Shown here piece by piece: positions 2,267 through 42,047 of a DNA stretch of 43,754 bases. The notes beneath the pieces are model-generated. The model was not told the DNA's origin. It was given only the letters and a program-made list of their open reading frames with translations, and made no database searches. Positions within the stretch are counted from its first letter, which is position 1. Every line of letters starts with the position of its first letter. This stretch comes from a virus: IMG/VR virus record IMGVR_UViG_3300029478_000005. The stretch is one strand, 5' to 3'. Made by a program: the position numbers and the translations under genes.

Positions 2267-3016
2267 ATGCCCAAACCATTGGTATACTGGCAACTGGATG
2301 TACAGAATGACTACGTGCATACAAGTCCGTCATGCCCTGATATTGTAAATGCAAAAAATGTTAGGTGCGGGACGGTTGAGGACGCACAGAAAACGGGACA
2401 CAATAGAGCCTGTCCATGTTGTGGTGTAGTCGAAAAGTCAAAAAAAGATATGGTTGAAAAATCAACCGCCTATATATGGGTTTTCTTAACCGTTATTATA
2501 ATGGGAAATTTACTCTGGATAGTTGGCACTTCCAGCAATCAAGATAATTACAACAAAGGATATGATGCCGGTTATGATGCAGGATATAAAGATGGGCAAA
2601 AAACTTTAGGTAAACCAGAAGATACGAGCAAGCCAGTTCCAACTATAAAACCGACGCCGATTGCTACACCAAACGGCGCGAAAACTTACGGGAGTTTTAA
2701 AGTAACAGCAACAGCCAATATGATTTATAATAATCACGTTGGCAACGATTGGGAGTATTATTTTGAGGCGGGCGATAAACAATTACCAGCAACGGTAAAT
2801 TGCCGCGTTGGCGATGATGTAACGCTGTATGCAGAAATAACAGAAGATGACAGTGTGCCGGATGTTGGCTTGTGGGACGGATATGTTACAATCGAAGATG
2901 GAGATTTTGAGGACGGATTTACCGTAACAGAAGATGTTTATGTGTATGAAACAAGCGGAAGGTATTCTGGAAATGAAGCAAAGTTTGAAGTAACATGGGA
3001 TTTTGAGCCACAATAA
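2267..3016 (+). CDS. Membrane protein: N-terminal Cys-rich Zn-finger-like domain, one TM helix, extracytoplasmic beta-rich domain (249 aa); lysogeny-module moron
   Basis: HTSPSCPDI...GHNRACPCC motif, TM AYIWVFLTVIIMGNLLWIV, YDAGYDAGY linker. AT-rich relative to its flanks. Sits between repressor and integrase. Confidence 0.6.
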   Translation: MPKPLVYWQLDVQNDYVHTSPSCPDIVNAKNVRCGTVEDAQKTGHNRACPCCGVVEKSKKDMVEKSTAYIWVFLTVIIMGNLLWIVGTSSNQDNYNKGYDAGYDAGYKDGQKTLGKPEDTSKPVPTIKPTPIATPNGAKTYGSFKVTATANMIYNNHVGNDWEYYFEAGDKQLPATVNCRVGDDVTLYAEITEDDSVPDVGLWDGYVTIEDGDFEDGFTVTEDVYVYETSGRYSGNEAKFEVTWDFEPQ

Positions 3017-3114
3017 AAAAGCCCCTGCCGGTGGGTCGAGCACCGACAAGGGCAAAGGGTGTCAGCTTTTGGCTGGCATCTTTTAGTATATAGCGATTTT
3101 AGGAGGGTGTCAAC

Positions 3115-4230
3115 ATGGCAAGAGCAAAAGCGCGGGCTGATGGGCTGATTGAACGAACAAAAACCTATGACGGCAAGCGGGTACACTTTTACGGAAAGAC
3201 CGCGAAAGAGGTCGCCGCGAAGATTGACGAATACGAACGCCAGCGGGAAGCGGTGAAAGAGAACGGCCCGCTGTTTGAGGATGTGGCCGGTGAATGGTGG
3301 GAGACCCATTCAAAAAATATCAAGACCGGCGCGGAAAGAGCCTACAAGGGCAGCTACAAGGCCGCGCTGGAAGAGTTCAGCGGGTACAGAATGAAAGAGA
3401 TAACCCCTGCTGCGGTGTCGCTGTGGGGCGAGAAATTCAAGGCCGCAGGCTATGCAGGGAAGACGGCAAGCAACGCCCGGAGCGTGTTGTCTTGTGTATT
3501 CAAGTTTTGGTGCGTCCGGGATGGCGAAACATACAACCCGGTGACAGTTACCGATCTGCCGCGCGGCATGAAAAAAGCAGAGCGCGAACCGCCGACAGAG
3601 GAACAGCTACAAATCGTCAAGGCACACCCGGAGGGGTTCGGGCTGTGTGCCTGGCTGTTCATGTACACCGGCTGCCGACTGGGTGAGGTGCTGGCGCTGC
3701 AATGGCGGGATGTGGATTTTGAAAAAAACAGAATCAGCATATCCAAAGAAGTGGCGTGGATAAACAATCAGCCGGTTGTGCAAGCGCCAAAAACCGCAAA
3801 CGGAGTGCGCGCTGTGCCGCTGCTGTCGCCGCTGCGGGGCGTGCTAGAGCCGTTACGCGGGGCAGATAGTGAGTATATACTCGGAGGGGAAAGGCCGCTG
3901 ACAGGCTGCGCATACAAGCGCAGATGGGCATATTACTGCAAGGATGTGGGCATGGCGCACTATGTGCTGCACACACGAAGAAATAAGCACAGAGACAAAG
4001 AGTACACAACGACGATTAAGGACTGGATTGCCGACGTAACGGCGCACCAGTTCCGGCACGAGTACGCCTCGATGCTGTATGAAGCAGGAATAGGCGAGCT
4101 GGAAGCACAACGCCTTATGGGGCACGCTGACATTACGACGACACGGCGGGTATATACACACATACGGGAACGCCAGCTAGATACAGCAGGAGAGGCACTA
4201 GAAAAATTTATAAGCGATAAAACGATATAA
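3115..4230 (+). CDS. int: Tyrosine recombinase / phage integrase (371 aa)
   Basis: C-terminal catalytic signature TAHQFRHEYAS...LMGHADITTTRRVYTH (R..H-x-x-R..H..Y). AGGAGGG RBS. Adjacent attP. Confidence 0.92.
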   Translation: MARAKARADGLIERTKTYDGKRVHFYGKTAKEVAAKIDEYERQREAVKENGPLFEDVAGEWWETHSKNIKTGAERAYKGSYKAALEEFSGYRMKEITPAAVSLWGEKFKAAGYAGKTASNARSVLSCVFKFWCVRDGETYNPVTVTDLPRGMKKAEREPPTEEQLQIVKAHPEGFGLCAWLFMYTGCRLGEVLALQWRDVDFEKNRISISKEVAWINNQPVVQAPKTANGVRAVPLLSPLRGVLEPLRGADSEYILGGERPLTGCAYKRRWAYYCKDVGMAHYVLHTRRNKHRDKEYTTTIKDWIADVTAHQFRHEYASMLYEAGIGELEAQRLMGHADITTTRRVYTHIRERQLDTAGEALEKFISDKTI

Positions 4231-4418: not shown

Positions 4419-4446
4419 TGGTGCGGCTAACAGGACTTGAACCTGT
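4419..4446 (-). other. attP core: 3' end of a tRNA gene (T-arm + acceptor 3' strand + CCA)
   Basis: Minus strand reads ACAGGTTCAAGTCCTGTTAGCCGCACCA: T stem-loop ACAGG-TTCAAGT-CCTGT, then TAGCCGC-A-CCA. It lies next to int and between the arm repeats. Confidence 0.75.
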
Positions 4447-5012: not shown

Positions 5013-5420
5013 TTAAGCCTCCCCAGCTGTCCACGCGGCAGCCAGTGCCCGGCGGAGCACCGGCGATGAGTTCACGGTATCAGCATCAAGAGCGAGAGCG
5101 GCGAGGGCTTCGCCGACGCTGCCGGTATAGTGGCACTCGTGATTAGCAATCTCTGTTTGGAATGCGTCAACGGCAAAATCGTAATCATTGATAGCTGCGG
5201 AAAGTTCTGCATCAAATCGGGAGAACATCTCAGACAGCTTCTTGGAATCGTTGCATCGGTAGTACATGCCGCCAAATCCGTGATAGATGGCGCTTGTGTC
5301 GTCCGGGGAAAGCCCAAGGCGGCGCATGCCGTCATCAAATTGCTTATTGCTGAAAGCAAAAAAGCACGGAAAAGCGTTAAGCTCGGACTGCTGGCGATTT
5401 TTTAACTCGGTGTAGGTCAT
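5013..5420 (-). CDS. Hypothetical protein (135 aa), family recalled from conjugative-element leading regions
   Basis: GAGGAG RBS before ATG 5420. MTYTELKNRQQSELNAFPCFFAFSNKQFDDGMRRLGL... The 371-aa ORF-track version is a Pro/Arg-rich upstream extension. Confidence 0.6.
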   Translation of the reverse strand: MTYTELKNRQQSELNAFPCFFAFSNKQFDDGMRRLGLSPDDTSAIYHGFGGMYYRCNDSKKLSEMFSRFDAELSAAINDYDFAVDAFQTEIANHECHYTGSVGEALAALALDADTVNSSPVLRRALAAAWTAGEA

Positions 5421-5718
5421 TGTTGCAATCTCCTCTTTATATTTTGGAATATGGGACGGGGCCTGTTTTTGTGGTGATAAACCGAACGGGAACTGTACCG
5501 AACACGTCCGGCGGCGGGTACAATCTGTTTTGCGGGGAGGTGTACCGGCTCCCGCTGGACTTATGCCAGCGCCCCGGCGGGCTGGCTGCCATTGTTGGCG
5601 ATGGGTGCGCGTTGTAAATTTGTGCCGTGCTTGCTGTTGTGTTGGTACCCAAGCCCGCCCACTCCTTGCAGGGTGGCCGGGCTTGCACCGGCGGCGCGTT
5701 ATGCGTCTGCCTTGCGGG

Positions 5719-6162
5719 TCAATCAAGGCAAGTTTCGCGCTTGATTTTGTACTGCGCTTTGATCTTGTCATAGGCGCGGAGCGTGACCATGTAGGTGCCC
5801 TGTTCTGCGTCGTAGGTAATGCCGCGCCCGTGGAGCGGGGGCAGTCCGTCACGCAGGGGGCGCAGAAAGTAGTGCTTGCCATAGTAGGCAAGATCGGCGG
5901 CGTAGTCGCAGCCCGTGGGGGCCTGCTGCATTTCGTAGCAGTAGGAATACTCGCCGGGGGCGGTGGCCTGCACGGCGGGGGTCTTGGCAGCCTCCAATGC
6001 GTCATAATCGGGGGCGTAGCCGTAAACCTCGCCGGTGCTGGGGTCATAGCGGGAAACGGAAAAATCCGGGATGAAAAGCGCCGTGTTTGTGCCGATCTGC
6101 TGGGAGTAGCCACCGGGAACCGGGGCAAAGGTGCCGGGAATTTTGCGTTCTGTTGCTGCCAT
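5719..6162 (-). CDS. Hypothetical protein (147 aa)
   Basis: AGGAGG RBS. No recognisable motif. Confidence 0.6.
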   Translation of the reverse strand: MAATERKIPGTFAPVPGGYSQQIGTNTALFIPDFSVSRYDPSTGEVYGYAPDYDALEAAKTPAVQATAPGEYSYCYEMQQAPTGCDYAADLAYYGKHYFLRPLRDGLPPLHGRGITYDAEQGTYMVTLRAYDKIKAQYKIKRETCLD

Positions 6163-7257: not shown

Positions 7258-7302
7258 CTCATTATACAGTTTTAACGTATCAACGCGAAAATTAGGTTTC
7301 GG

Positions 7303-7333
7303 GCGTCCAGCTTTACCGCTGGGCGCTTTTTTT
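7303..7333 (+). terminator. Promoter-proximal intrinsic terminator ahead of terS
   Basis: 9-bp stem GCGTCCAGC/GCTGGGCGC (one G-U), loop TTTACC, T7 run. Ends 25 nt before ATG 7359. Confidence 0.75.
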
Positions 7334-7358
7334 GTTGCTATAAAAGGAGGGCGGCAAC

Positions 7359-7925
7359 ATGGCAGAAAAGAAGGCGGCGCAGGCCGTCCAGCTTGGAGAA
7401 GTGACCCGCAAGGCAATTGCAGGAGTCGAAAAGGCCAGGCAAGCAGCAGAACGCGGTGAACTCGTAGATAAGCGCGGCAACAGGATGAACCCGGCCAGCA
7501 TTGCGAATCTGCGGCCAGGTACAGCAATAAAGGATATGGAACCGGAACGTAGGCGGGAAATTCAGCAGGCAGGGCAGAAGGCAAGCGTTGAAGCTCAGAA
7601 GAAGCGCCGAACGATTAAGGAAATATATAGAGACCTGCTACAGCAGCCGGACAGTGTGGAAGGGCTGGAAGATGAGGAACTAGCCCAAACTGTACAAGAG
7701 ATGGCGCGAGAGAGGGGAAGGCCTGTCACGTTGTACGAATCAATCGCTGTCGCGATGGCGGCCAAAGCGAAGGCCGGAGACGTCAAAGCGGCGGTGTTTG
7801 TGCGAGATTCTGCGGGCGATAAACCGGCTGATCAGATGGAAATTACAGCCGAAGCAATGACCGACGCAGATAGAGAATTGATGCAGAACATCCAGAAGCG
7901 ACTGCAAAAGAACGATAATACGTGA
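7359..7925 (+). CDS. terS: Terminase small subunit (188 aa)
   Basis: AAGGAGGG RBS. The segment AKAGDVKAAVFVRDSAGDKPADQ matches the conserved TerS motif seen in Firmicutes phages (from memory). Sits upstream of terL. Confidence 0.7.
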   Translation: MAEKKAAQAVQLGEVTRKAIAGVEKARQAAERGELVDKRGNRMNPASIANLRPGTAIKDMEPERRREIQQAGQKASVEAQKKRRTIKEIYRDLLQQPDSVEGLEDEELAQTVQEMARERGRPVTLYESIAVAMAAKAKAGDVKAAVFVRDSAGDKPADQMEITAEAMTDADRELMQNIQKRLQKNDNT

Positions 7926-7933
7926 TTTCGTGG

Positions 7934-7957
7934 TTCGCTAAATAAGTATTTAGCGAA
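7934..7957. promoter_or_regulatory. Perfect 10-11 bp hairpin/palindrome just after the terS stop
   Basis: TTCGCTAAATA-AG-TATTTAGCGAA. Confidence 0.5.
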
Positions 7958-8068
7958 ATAGAAACCAGCAGCAGGCGGAAACCGGGGGCTGGCTGTAGAT
8001 GAAGAAGGCCCGGGCGATGGTATTTTTTTTAGGCGGTCTGCCGGAGAGGGCAGGCGGCAGCAGGGCAG

Positions 8069-8346
8069 GGGGGTACCCCCTATGAAGGGGAGGGCGGGGC
8101 TCATAGGTAGCGCGGCCCGGTACGAATATGCCCATTCCCCCAGCGAACATAAAAATAAATTCTCTCCCATGCCACAAATATCCATGCAAAATGAAAGAAA
8201 ACACGGGATTGTATAACAAGCAAGAAACAAGAGTACATCCCCCTATGAGGGAACTATACCCTACATAGCAAAGGTTCCCTAAAAAAATAAAAATTTGAAA
8301 TTTTGAGTATCCCGGTGCGGAGACAGTACCCCCTACTGTTTATGGG
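8069..8346 (+). repeat. Three dispersed GTAC..CCCCCTA(T/C) motifs plus GGGGGTACCCCC palindrome (candidate packaging/protein-binding sites)
   Basis: TACCCCCTA at 8074-8082 and 8327-8335; ATCCCCCTA at 8237-8245. Palindrome 8069-8080. Hairpin CCTATGA(8079-8085)/TCATAGG(8101-8107) with a G-rich 15-nt loop. Confidence 0.45.
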
Positions 8347-8386
8347 ACTAGGGCCGTCCGCTTCAAGACCCAGCGGCCACAATAAA

Positions 8387-8414
8387 GCGTTCTGCTACGG
8401 CAGGGCGCTTTTTT
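8387..8414 (+). terminator. Intrinsic terminator inside the terS-terL gap
   Basis: 9-bp stem GCGTTCTGC/GCAGGGCGC (two G-U), loop TACG, T6. The core CTGCTACGGCAGGG is shared with the terminator at 12868. Confidence 0.7.
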
Positions 8415-8610
8415 ATTTGCTGCATAGCCAGCCGCAAACTTGGCCTGACAAGTCAATACGGCAAGGGCGCTGCGCTCCGCAAGCTACGGCGTGGCAAAGG
8501 TGCAAGACCTATGTGCAGTACAGAGGGCAGGGTCGCAACCTGTCTGTGTGAGCGTGCGCGGTATACCTCACAAATGATGACAATGGTCGTGCAAACGGCA
8601 AGCCGCACAT

Positions 8611-8668
8611 GCCCTTGTAGCTCAATGGCAAGAGCCTTGGTGTGCCGGTTCAAGTCCGGCTGAGGGCA
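8611..8668 (+). ncRNA. tRNA-like element lacking the anticodon arm (58 nt)
   Basis: Acceptor GCCCTTG/TGAGGGC; U8; D arm GCTC-AATGGCAA-GAGC (A14, G18G19, A21); T arm GCCGG-TTCAAGT-CCGGC; discriminator A. Only 8 nt (CTTGGTGT, 8636-8643) sit where the anticodon arm and variable loop belong. No encoded CCA. Confidence 0.6.
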
Positions 8669-8996
8669 AATGCTGGGTCATTCCCACCGGTGAAAGCCCG
8701 GCGCAGGCAAAATGCGATAAATCAACCTGAACGCTGTAAGCAAAGCGGCAAGCCGATCAGGAGCGCGGCGCGATGGCAGATCGCAACGGGACTTCGAGAG
8801 CCTGAAAAAGTCTGCCCCACATCTGCTTGCGCGGACGCTGTTACTGACACCGTTGCGCGTTGTGGCCCCCTTTAATCAAAGCAGAAACCGCGACCAGCGG
8901 ACGGGATATAAATAACGCTGGATTACGTTGCAGGTGTGCAGCTGCAACGGGTGAGACCGGCATAGCAGAGACCGGTAGGGCGGGTATGGGGAATTT

Positions 8997-10508
8997 TTGA
9001 GGAACTGGGGTGATGTGTTGACGCTGGAAGAAATGCGGGAACTTGAGCGCGAGGCGTGCAGGAAAGACCCGGTATATTTTTGCGAAACATATTGCCACAT
9101 TGAGGACAAGGACGCAGACGAGCTGATACAACCGTTTACGCTGTGGGACGGGCAGAAAAAAGCACTGGTCGTGTTTGCCGAGAACCGGCTTGTTTGCGTG
9201 CTGAAAGCACGTCAGTTGGGCTTTACATGGCTGGCGCTGGCAGAGGTGGCGCGGCTTGTGGCGCTGAACACAGGCCGTACTGCGATTGGCTTGAGCCGGT
9301 CAGAGGACGAGGCCAAAGAGCTTGTGCGCCGCCTTGCGGTGATACTGCGGTACATGCCGGGGCTTATCCGAGAGGTGGACACGCCGGGCGGCAGCGTTGC
9401 AGGCTGGACAGGGCCGGTATTCTACAAAAGCACAATGCAGGTGGTTGTGATGTGGCCGGACGGCCCAGAGAGCGTGTTTAAGGCGTTTCCGTCAAGCCCT
9501 GCGGCAGGCCGTTCGTTTACCGCTGACTTGATCGTAATTGACGAATGGGCGTTCCAGCAGTACGCAGAGGAAATCTGGCAGGCTGCATACCCGGTTATCA
9601 ACAGACCGTTCGGCGGGCGGGTTATCGGGCTGTCAACCATCAAACTTGGCACGCTGTTTGAGGAAATCTACACAAACCCCGGCAACGGTTTTGCAAAGCT
9701 GTTTTTGCCGTGGAGCACAGACCCACGCCGCAGTCAGAAGTGGTACGCACAGACTGTTGCTGCGCTGGGCGAGGATAAAACGATGCAGGAGTACCCTGCA
9801 ACCGAAGAAGAAGCGCTCTCTGCCCCCGGAGGGCGCTTTTTTAGTGAGCTTGACAAAGATACCCACTTGGTCGATGCACCGCCTACAGGGCCGCTAAGGC
9901 GCTATGTGACGATTGACTATGGTCTTGATATGCTGGCTGCGCTTTGGATTGCTGTTGACACGCAGGGCCATGCAACGGTGTACCGGGTGGACGGCGGGCC
10001 GAACAAGACGATAGGTGAAGCGGCAGATTTGATTTTGCGCGATTCTGCCGAGGAAGAGATAGACATGTATCTTGCACCGCCTGACCTGTGGAACCGAAGT
10101 CAGGAGAGCGGCAAGAGCCGCGCACAGCTGTTCAGCGAGGCGGGATTGCCGTTGGTGCAGAGTTCCCGAGACTTCCCGGCAGGATGCGCGGCCATGAAAC
10201 AATGGCTGCGCAAGGACGAAAAGAGCGGGAAAGGGTATCTGACGTTCTACAAGCCGGGCGAGTTATGGACGTGCCTGACGAAGATACAGAAGGATGATAA
10301 AAACCCTGATGTGTATGCGAAGAACCCTCACGGCCTGACGCATTACCCGGACGCATTACGCTATTTTTGCGTTTGGTGGACAAGCCCGGCGAAAAAACCT
10401 GTGAATATACGAAAAAGGCCGTGGACGGCGGACATGTACGAGGATTACAAGAACGCCAGCCAGAAAGACCGCAAAATGCTGATTGAGAAATGGGGGAACC
10501 CTGCATGA
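8997..10508 (+). CDS. terL: Terminase large subunit (about 500 aa; exact start uncertain: TTG 8997, GTG 9015 or ATG 9033)
   Basis: Walker-A-like LKARQLGFTW, Walker B DLIVIDEWAF, C-terminal nuclease-type region, correct size and position. Confidence 0.88.
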   Translation: MRNWGDVLTLEEMRELEREACRKDPVYFCETYCHIEDKDADELIQPFTLWDGQKKALVVFAENRLVCVLKARQLGFTWLALAEVARLVALNTGRTAIGLSRSEDEAKELVRRLAVILRYMPGLIREVDTPGGSVAGWTGPVFYKSTMQVVVMWPDGPESVFKAFPSSPAAGRSFTADLIVIDEWAFQQYAEEIWQAAYPVINRPFGGRVIGLSTIKLGTLFEEIYTNPGNGFAKLFLPWSTDPRRSQKWYAQTVAALGEDKTMQEYPATEEEALSAPGGRFFSELDKDTHLVDAPPTGPLRRYVTIDYGLDMLAALWIAVDTQGHATVYRVDGGPNKTIGEAADLILRDSAEEEIDMYLAPPDLWNRSQESGKSRAQLFSEAGLPLVQSSRDFPAGCAAMKQWLRKDEKSGKGYLTFYKPGELWTCLTKIQKDDKNPDVYAKNPHGLTHYPDALRYFCVWWTSPAKKPVNIRKRPWTADMYEDYKNASQKDRKMLIEKWGNPA

Positions 10509-41518: not shown

Positions 41519-42047
41519 CTTCTGTCAGTCCTTTCAGTTTTGCGATTTCTTCCGGGGTCATGGTGGGGATACCCTGCTGCTGGCATTCCTGCACGATCAG
41601 TTCAATGAGGCGGTGCATCTGGGCACTGTCGAACACGGACGAGCCGTACCAGCATTGCAGGTTGCAGAAGGTTCCCTGCGGGGTGGGCATGTCATCGATC
41701 TTGCGAACCTGCCAGCCATCGCCCTTGCTCTCCCAGCCGTTTTTGAACGCTTTTGCGGCATCGGCGCGGAGGGTGACAAGGGCGGAGCTGCCGCCGATGC
41801 CGCGTATCAAATCGCGGTAGATGTCCAGCACAGGACGGTTGATTTTTGCGGCAAGCTGGTTCATGAGCGCCCAGGCGTAAGCGTTGGCCGAGAGACTTCG
41901 CTTTTGTGAGGCCGTGCCGATGACGGCAGCAAGGGGCTTGCCATCGTCAATGACGGCGCGGGCTTTATCGCAGTCTGTGGGGGAACATTCCAGCGTGATT
42001 GTGTTTCCGATAACAACGGCTGCCTTTATGGAAATTTGTTGCTTCAT
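41505..42047 (-). CDS. NinB/Orf-like recombination mediator (180 aa), putative
   Basis: KRSLSANAYAWALMNQLAAKI resembles the RSL.QN..W motif of lambda NinB. Adjacent to the SSAP and SSB. Confidence 0.5.
   Translation of the reverse strand: MKQQISIKAAVVIGNTITLECSPTDCDKARAVIDDGKPLAAVIGTASQKRSLSANAYAWALMNQLAAKINRPVLDIYRDLIRGIGGSSALVTLRADAAKAFKNGWESKGDGWQVRKIDDMPTPQGTFCNLQCWYGSSVFDSAQMHRLIELIVQECQQQGIPTMTPEEIAKLKGLTEDDPQ

Follow-up and report, generated by a model that had tools for sequence, protein, structure and literature searches.

The stretch of DNA analysed here, the 43,754 nucleotides of IMG/VR virus record IMGVR_UViG_3300029478_000005 (the window), is a temperate phage or prophage. In the leader ahead of its large terminase gene, terL, lies a single-copy, anticodon-arm-less tRNA-like gene that we call A58 (positions 8611-8668, + strand). 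It is recognised by its sequence, by a match to the Rfam tRNA model, by its copies in other phages and by their covariation, and its parts are as follows.

8611-8617, +: 5' strand of the acceptor stem
8618-8619, +: U8 and A9
8620-8623 and 8632-8635, +: D stem, with the D loop at 8624-8631
8636-8643, +: 8-nt linker from D stem to T stem
8644-8648 and 8656-8660, +: T stem, with the T loop at 8649-8655
8661-8667, +: 3' strand of the acceptor stem, followed by the discriminator A at 8668

The 58 nt of A58 read GCCCTTG TA GCTC AATGGCAA GAGC CTTGGTGT GCCGG TTCAAGT CCGGC TGAGGGC A. The acceptor stem GCCCUUG/UGAGGGC has 7 bp (five Watson-Crick pairs plus U6.G67 and G7.U66), the D arm has a 4-bp stem and a loop with A14, A15, G18G19 and A21, and the T arm has a 5-bp stem and the loop UUCAAGU; the 15:48 Levitt pair is A15:U48. 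AAUG comes directly after the discriminator A, and CCA is therefore not encoded. The whole element matches the Rfam tRNA family RF00005 from end to end with 40.9 bits (gathering threshold 29, E = 2.2e-05 in the 43.7-kb window), and in this alignment 18 anticodon-arm positions of the model are replaced by 4 nt while nothing else is missing. The anticodon arm, a 5-bp stem and 7-nt loop, is absent, leaving the D and T stems only 8 nt apart, and for that reason A58 cannot decode; it is a tRNA relative that fails the defining anticodon-arm test. The predicted architecture is an acceptor/T minihelix on whose T loop the D arm is docked. An earlier note, made from the sequence alone, had described this anatomy, without anticodon arm or CCA, and was exact in every feature that it listed. 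It had also expected ARAGORN to miss the element, and that program makes no tRNA or transfer-messenger RNA (tmRNA) call anywhere in the window. Of the Rfam models that the note had proposed to run, the tRNA model thus matches with its anticodon arm deleted, but neither tmRNA nor YrlA, nor any other Rfam family, matches at the A58 position even at E <= 10.

The tRNA-like fold has a free energy of -22.6 kcal/mol, 1.6 above the minimum free energy of -24.2. The mirror fold of the opposite strand is weaker (-19.6 kcal/mol) because the two G.U pairs become A.C there, and the + strand, the only one that the G.U pairs fit, is the coding strand of A58. From its sequence and the comparisons below, A58 appears to be a genuine, selected + strand RNA gene consisting of the top half plus elbow of a tRNA without the decoding arm.

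Relatives were gathered through terL, which gave 80 IMG/VR loci at 46-99% identity; a blastn search of GenBank phages with positions 8250-9000 found no match. A58 is present in 15 of the 80 terL loci, an A58-specific scan found it in 80 IMG/VR contigs, and there are 83 copies overall, carried by gut phages and prophages, all of them belonging to a single phage group from human gut samples. One copy (L285; L numbers are our locus handles) lies in a Gemmiger metagenome-assembled genome (MAG) with a matching arrangement around the D12-methyl RNA motif described below. This copy and the A58-like unit L261, from an Oscillospiraceae MAG, indicate Oscillospiraceae hosts, and the host is probably Gemmiger or another member of that family.

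Sixty-three of the 83 copies are identical. Nucleotide diversity (pi) is 0.016 within the 58 nt, as against 0.26-0.27 in the 120 nt upstream and 0.30 in the 4-nt spacer that follows; it is 0.056 in the core of the next motif, E, and 0.29 past E. The island of conservation therefore shares its exact borders with the tRNA shape. Six of seven types of stem substitution preserve pairing: in the acceptor stem U6.G67 becomes U-A and G7.U66 becomes G-C, and in the T stem G49-C65 becomes G.U and C51-G63 becomes U.G, with a full double change to U-A as well. The sole mismatch, A4.G69, occurs once, and the remaining variants are single changes in the D loop, linker or discriminator. Acceptor pairing is retained in 11 of 12 variants. 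In L261 the D arm and D loop are the same as in A58 and the linker nearly so (CUCGGAGU), its acceptor stem is wholly different yet pairs throughout (GAGGGCG/CGCCCUC), and compensation is seen in its T stem. These comparisons show purifying selection acting on the A58 fold.

They also bear on the simplest alternative, that A58 is a decaying tRNA pseudogene whose anticodon arm was deleted and which now drifts, its copies being alike only through close kinship. All copies do come from one phage group, but the sharp conservation island, the paired stem substitutions and the wholly re-paired acceptor stem of L261 are hard to square with drift, and a scan of IMG/VR for a parent tRNA of full length, sharing its 5' half and T loop with A58, gave 0 matches.

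The features around A58 in the leader are these.

7359-7925: upstream open reading frame (ORF), matching only a family of unknown function
8384-8419, +: intrinsic-terminator-like hairpin (8384-8411) and T-run, found by a terminator scan, at the 5' start of a variable tRNA/tRNA-like island
8421-8610, +: conserved non-coding spacer, 'up1', between terminator and A58, with no Rfam match
8673-8725, +: conserved 'E' core motif (CTGGGTC...CCACCGGTGAAAGCCCGGCGCAGG...; CTGGGTCnnnCCCACCGGTGAAAGCCCGGCGCAGG...), beginning 4 nt past the A58 discriminator
8926-8988, +: D12-methyl RNA motif (RF02950; 72.9 bits, gathering threshold 57), ending 8 nt before the terL ORF
8997-10508, +: terL, large terminase subunit (PHROG 2, E = 1e-24; Pfam Terminase_6N match weak)

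About 1 kb without a credible ORF separates the end of the upstream ORF at 7925 from terL. The untranslated leader of roughly 600 nt runs in the order terminator, tRNA-shaped slot, E motif, D12-methyl motif, terL. terL is the first gene of the late/structural block and is followed by capsid, portal and other structural genes. In one of its possible roles the earlier note had set A58 between the mRNAs of the small and large terminase genes, terS and terL. The terL half of this stands, but the upstream ORF is not verifiably terS and the terminator intervenes. A scan of 7300-9200 for sigma-70-like promoters found none. The sequence before A58 ends in ...GCACAT, giving a U at -1, and a U occupies this position in every A58 context.

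Blocks of up1 recur among relatives at 92-98% identity, and the relatives likewise carry the D12-methyl motif upstream of terL. That motif takes its name from DNA methyltransferase genes; in the window and its relatives it heads the terminase/late operon. About 40 relatives have the E motif behind their tRNA-shaped slot, and 81 of the 83 copies of A58 are followed by it. It forms three small hairpins with a few compensatory changes and little covariation. No Rfam family fits it, a group II intron D1-D4 match at 8684-8791 being taken as spurious (23.7 bits against a gathering threshold of 49). Pairing between the A58 linker (UUGGUG) and the E motif (CACCGG) was also considered and rejected, because all four combinations of the linker variants UG and AG with the E variants CACC and CUCC occur, without covariation.

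Among the close relatives, in which all features were mapped, the frame of terminator, island, E, D12-methyl motif and terL is constant and the content of the island is not. The terminator is kept at its 5' edge in most of them, and in L003 and L006 a tRNA begins straight after the T-run. ARAGORN finds tRNA-Ser(GCU), tRNA-Thr(UGU), tRNA-Trp and tRNA-Asp in the island, and tRNA-Gln in a sister group. A tRNA-shaped unit stands upstream of E in every one of the approximately 40 close relatives with a locatable E, at about 3-15 nt in nearly all. A58 is the sole unit in seven such loci, as in the window. Elsewhere the slot holds a genuine tRNA-Thr (L003, L006, L009) or tRNA-Trp (L024), and in L005 the last unit is a tRNA-Trp separated from E by an insert of about 55 nt. 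The canonical tRNAs of these relatives encode CCA, whereas A58 does not.

Three further kinds of unit occupy the same slot. The first, of 69 nt (L002:2600-2668, L017:2408-2476, L020:2264-2332 and others), encodes CCA and has normal acceptor, D and T arms; its 'anticodon' stem, with one compensatory change, has only 4 bp and is closed by the loop GCUCGAG, and ARAGORN misses the unit. The second, of 84-86 nt (L014:2561-2646, L012:2586-2669, L021, L030-L032), has an aberrant middle region and no encoded CCA, and ARAGORN labels it tRNA-His(AUG), a mislabel since that anticodon is not used for His. The third is a degenerate unit (L004:~2442-2509 and L058:~2577-2639) whose acceptor stem has 5-6 bp and which carries a 3-bp mini-hairpin. 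The cassettes differ among phages whose terL genes are 99% identical, and A58 is thus one of several interchangeable tRNA-shaped units, real tRNAs included. The earlier note had allowed that relatives might carry a normal full-length tRNA here, of which A58 would be a deleted copy. Normal tRNA-Thr and tRNA-Trp do occur in the slot, but they are unrelated cassettes and not undeleted orthologues of A58. We also observed a 48-nt armless unit that resembles the local tRNA-Trp (L020:1920-1967, L029:882-929) and, in several relatives with different cassette types, a short hairpin plus TTTTATAT or TTTTATTT preceding the unit.

A58 belongs to a much wider class of units, defined by canonical acceptor, D and T arms, a D-to-T linker of 4-14 nt, covarying stems and a 15:48 pair. 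The class was scanned for with one narrow pattern, a D arm (TAGCTYARNNGGNNARAGC), a 3-14-nt gap and a T-arm core, in which the acceptor stem and three T-stem pairs were left free. It matched 116 IMG/VR stretches and at least 120 in GTDB genomes. Among 196 armless matches at viral-contig loci (from the class scan plus the A58-specific scan), 170 have seven of seven acceptor pairs, against a chance expectation of about 0.1%. An alignment of 108 distinct sequences (A58 and 107 others) accommodates A58 without stem gaps, with 98.9% of its cells paired, and its covariation score of 0.73 compares with 0.15 for shuffled controls and 0.10-0.13 for those with slid partners; changes on both sides are seen in every one of the seven acceptor pairs and in two of the free T-stem pairs. 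Since only matches with at least six of seven acceptor pairs were admitted to the alignment, its acceptor-stem figures are partly made by selection, and the unbiased tests are the 170 of 196 and the two free T-stem pairs. The fold of A58 is thus backed both by compensatory changes among its own copies and by class-wide covariation, the check that the earlier note had proposed.

The tertiary pair is kept as well. The last linker base covaries with position 15 as the 15:48 pair, which 106 of the 108 rows follow, as G15:C48 in 92 and as A15:U48 in 14, the latter from at least five lineages including that of A58; two rows are exceptions. This argues for a true L-shaped core in armless units. Linkers of 8 nt (40 rows) and 9 nt (23 rows) are the commonest, with a recurring form C-UU-GGGUC. 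D-to-T spacers form a continuum of 8-14 nt in the alignment and 16-21 nt in further units. Spacers of 16-19 nt are mostly perfect 3-5-bp stems with tetraloop caps (GCGA, GUAA, UUUA and others; L398-L517, IMG/VR), and those of 20-21 nt often yield 6-nt anticodon loops that ARAGORN reports as 'tRNA-???' with two-base anticodons. Rfam scores class members as weak tRNAs of 30-48 bits.

A pseudogene origin could draw on this continuum of spacers and on the turnover of tRNA cassettes in the island. The paired acceptor stems of the armless matches and the dominance of 8-9-nt linkers of recurring form stand against it, and we regard a pseudogene as unlikely; a 'dead tRNA gene' is the least likely of the roles that the earlier note had offered, and its view that loss of exactly the anticodon arm does not look like random decay is borne out by the conservation island, the compensatory changes, the lack of a full-length version in IMG/VR and the large covarying class. 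Armless tRNA look-alikes are, on these comparisons, common but unrecognised in many phages, and were therefore probably retained for a non-decoding role.

The integrase region of the window supplies a comparison for another alternative, that A58 is a DNA-level site for packaging, recombination or attachment that merely resembles a tRNA. The features concerned are the following.

3115-4230: tyrosine integrase gene
4419-4446, -: tRNA 3' fragment, likely the attP core, with T arm, 3' acceptor strand and CCA (ACAGG TTCAAGT CCTGT TAGCCGC A CCA)

The fragment lies about 190 nt downstream of the integrase gene. It is real, separate and on the minus strand, and A58 is distinct from it, as the earlier note had held. 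A58 itself was rejected as an attachment-site tRNA fragment, since both acceptor strands are present and it lies 4.4 kb from the integrase gene. A DNA site would suit the proximity to terL in the window and in several unrelated phages, and the position of lactococcal copies near a prophage end. We nevertheless find it barely credible: the many G.U pairs become A.C on the opposite strand, covariation keeps RNA helices and a tertiary pair and not the sequence, and the window has its real attachment-type tRNA fragment elsewhere. The early region also holds a full-length match to the twister-sister ribozyme (RF02681) at 5642-5722 on the - strand (59.9 bits, gathering threshold 34).

The surroundings of class members are varied. 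About one-third of armless units belong to dense tRNA arrays, with real tRNAs 1-10 nt away. The rest include solitary units that run in the direction of neighbouring genes and are often found 0.3-2.6 kb ahead of terL genes from five different PHROG families, or near portal, endolysin or ParB-methylase genes. Among 82 other distinct armless units, 49% have U at -1 and 11% encode CCA (31% of canonical tRNAs in the same loci do so); their discriminators are A in 39, C in 17, G in 15 and U in 11, and their acceptor stems are highly diverse. The 45 nt upstream of armless units are unusually structured (mean z -1.3; controls, -0.3). In three contigs of Pseudomonadales phages the Pseudomonadales-1 RNA motif (RF03046, 90-119 bits) is followed 43-51 nt on by an armless unit; motif and unit lie at these positions.

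L115: motif 9671-9824, -; armless unit 9559-9620, -
L116: motif 5415-5581; armless unit 5312-5371
L160: motif 5810-5964; armless unit 5697-5758

Cultured phages carry such units too. In Vibrio phage K476 (OZ195911.1, 157 kb) an armless unit that encodes CCA (L397:1501-1563) stands between tRNA-Met and tRNA-Arg; it is annotated as a 60-nt 'tRNA', and its acceptor stem GCTCCCT/AGGGAGC-A is shared with a large cluster of human-gut phages (L086 and others). In Lactococcus phage P335 an unannotated armless unit (L518:199-258) can be read in the sequence, GGTTCTT..AAGAACC-A with a 12-nt linker; in TP712, a prophage of L. lactis MG1363, a match to the armless consensus follows the lysin/moron genes near the prophage end (L520:~2994-3053; about 41947-42006 of AY766464); and BLAST matches to the consensus occur in the further P335-type phages bIL309, 63301 and 98202. 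Complete E. coli genomes gave no armless-type match, that is, none in a single piece across the D-T junction. A 'tRNA-OTHER' of Psychrobacter phage Psymv2 was discarded, as its match of 79 nt in two pieces looks, from the match span, like a full-length tRNA. Bacteroidota chromosomal matches (L200:4980-5170, -; L307:1439-1500, -; and about 90 others, within L199-L316) were also set aside because they consist of tRNA-like modules in tandem, each circularly permuted to the order T arm, capped acceptor hairpin, D arm, and are not armless tRNAs. These modules resemble YrlA Y RNAs, with only weak tRNA matches in Rfam. At L200, the one such locus whose genes were checked, the RNA lies in a non-coding region of about 1.1 kb beside RlaP (RNA-repair), SPFH/Band-7, WYL and AAA genes.

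For the function of A58, our preferred reading, held tentatively and by analogy with t-elements and mascRNA, is that it may be a processing module cut by ribonucleases (RNases) P and Z. The reading starts from what is directly seen, namely the fold, its conservation and covariation, the strand, the position and the interchangeability with real tRNAs. A58 is intergenic and co-oriented, in the non-coding leader between terminator and terL, and has the shape by which t-elements are recognised. Read-through or late transcripts would fold the tRNA shape; host RNase P would cut at 8610/8611, behind the U at -1, leaving the upstream RNA with the terminator hairpin at its end; and RNase Z would cut after A8668, a site proposed because no CCA is encoded, to create the 5' end of the E/D12-methyl/terL leader. 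A small RNA of about 58-61 nt, able to receive CCA, would be freed. Transcription, each of the cleavage steps and the benefit to the phage are what we infer here. RNase P, RNase Z and the CCA-adding enzyme can each act on no more than an acceptor/T minihelix. Since only the acceptor, T and D/elbow determinants matter to these enzymes, the anticodon arm would be dispensable and hence lost.

Processing would account for the dispensability of decoding, for the acceptance of any tRNA-shaped cassette in the slot, for the presence of at least one unit upstream of E in each close relative with a located E, and for the armless unit behind the Pseudomonadales-1 motif in three phage contigs. The RNase P-type U at -1 and the structured 45 nt upstream across the class also count in its favour. 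That E might act as a 5'-stabiliser hairpin is an unproven idea, given its small hairpins, its scant covariation and the unremarkable structure of downstream flanks in the class.

Several observations weigh against processing. The downstream flanks of armless units are no more structured than usual. L261 sits between a hairpin and a RecT-like gene and not near terL. The members of tRNA arrays, with real tRNAs close by, need no extra punctuation. The loops and linker of A58 are conserved like its stems and the slot is prone to swaps among near-identical phages, which is more typical of accessory or counter-defence cargo. Tetraloop-capped anticodon stems, finally, suggest selection against decoding itself, beyond its mere dispensability.

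In a second reading, the main rival and in our view possible though doubtful, A58 would be a trans-acting, non-decoding tRNA mimic, a processed RNA of about 60 nt that binds a factor reading the tRNA acceptor end or elbow. It could inhibit or sponge tRNA-targeting defence enzymes (anticodon nucleases, acceptor-end modifying toxins) or a host tRNA-binding regulator; having no anticodon loop, it would be uncleavable there and barred from decoding. The class is widespread and conserved over unrelated phages and hosts, its array members sit where punctuation is redundant, and the cultured Vibrio phage copy encodes CCA like its neighbours. The retained 15:48 pair implies a true L-shaped core, the capped stems point to selection for tRNA shape without an anticodon, and the conserved loops and linker of A58 and the polymorphic cassettes of phages with 99% identical terL fit this reading as well. 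So do the acceptor stem common to gut phages and a marine Vibrio phage, and the occurrence of tRNA-mimicking Y RNAs beside RNA-repair genes. Against it, the mimic has no known partner, and within the window no defence or anti-defence gene is linked to A58; a stoichiometric decoy would need high expression; and in the A58 phage group the unit is fixed at one leader position, 4 nt from a conserved motif, and swaps with ordinary tRNAs. On a broader form of the idea, which we hold equally doubtful, many phage lineages would encode a hitherto unrecognised family of non-decoding tRNA mimics, from armless to tetraloop-capped, acting in trans as an RNA-based form of counter-defence alongside phage tRNA arrays, most plausibly as uncleavable inhibitors or sponges of tRNA-targeting immune effectors or of other tRNA-binding host factors.

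The synthetases for Ala, Ser, Leu and His charge substrates without an anticodon, and A58 might accordingly be an aminoacylatable carrier that receives CCA, is charged by an anticodon-blind synthetase and donates its amino acid non-ribosomally or titrates the synthetase. Its intact acceptor stem, discriminator A and elbow would allow this, as would the CCA encoded in some class members. However, A58 has C3-G70 in place of G3:U70 and lacks both G-1 and a long variable arm, the class is very varied in its acceptor stems and discriminators, and no aminoacyl-transferase gene was seen near A58, so that we consider a carrier very unlikely.

Phage tRNA genes are mostly read as codon supply or as an escape from tRNA-cleaving defences, and a conserved tRNA unable to decode fits neither. 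If A58 is a processing module, bacterial viruses use the tRNA-punctuation logic of mitochondria and MALAT1 to shape their late-gene mRNAs; if it acts in trans, it represents a new class of RNA in the contest between phage and host. Annotation pipelines miss armless units or label them 'tRNA' or 'tRNA-OTHER', and tractable systems that carry them exist in the P335-type prophages of Lactococcus lactis and in Vibrio phage K476. Our literature search, whose coverage was incomplete so that an earlier mention is possible, found no description of armless tRNA-like genes as a phage feature and likewise none for the D12-methyl or Pseudomonadales-1 motifs; only the t-element analogy surfaced.

Among known systems, canonical phage tRNAs share with A58 the island in the late-operon leader, the acceptor/D/T architecture and an above-threshold match to the same Rfam family, and differ in having an anticodon arm, an ARAGORN call and, in these relatives, an encoded CCA. 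The tRNA-like domain of tmRNA is likewise an acceptor/T module that lacks an anticodon arm and is a substrate of the tRNA-processing enzymes, but its D region is reduced, and it has G3:U70 and, where the anticodon arm would be, a long mRNA-like insert with pseudoknots. A58 has none of these, nor a tag frame or an ARAGORN or Rfam tmRNA match, and it is not a tmRNA. YrlA Y RNAs too are non-decoding mimics of the tRNA elbow, acceptor and T arm, linked to conflicts over RNA damage and repair. Their modules are circularly permuted and joined to a Ro-binding stem, whereas A58 has the normal order and open acceptor ends; it has no Ro stem and no Rfam YrlA match, and was ruled out as a YrlA (the rsr gene was not searched for).

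The documented precedent for a shape of the A58 type is the plant mitochondrial t-element, for example that of Arabidopsis nad6. T-elements are degenerate tRNA shapes with an acceptor/T-arm mimic and T loop, some without an anticodon arm. They lie within mRNA precursors, where cutting by RNase P and/or RNase Z is believed to give mRNA ends (PMC5499578). T-elements are organellar, eukaryotic and usually poorly conserved, whereas A58 is phage-borne and very strongly conserved, has a canonical D arm and elbow nucleotides, and belongs to a class found also inside tRNA arrays. The mascRNA and MEN-beta RNAs of MALAT1 and NEAT1 are likewise tRNA-like units of about 60 nt downstream of another RNA. 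There, RNase P makes the 3' end of the upstream RNA, and RNase Z and CCA addition free the non-decoding small RNA. These RNAs are vertebrate and nuclear and have no sequence relationship to A58, and mascRNA keeps a shortened anticodon stem-loop; its layout with MALAT1 is the one in which the Pseudomonadales-1 RNA and its armless unit are arranged.

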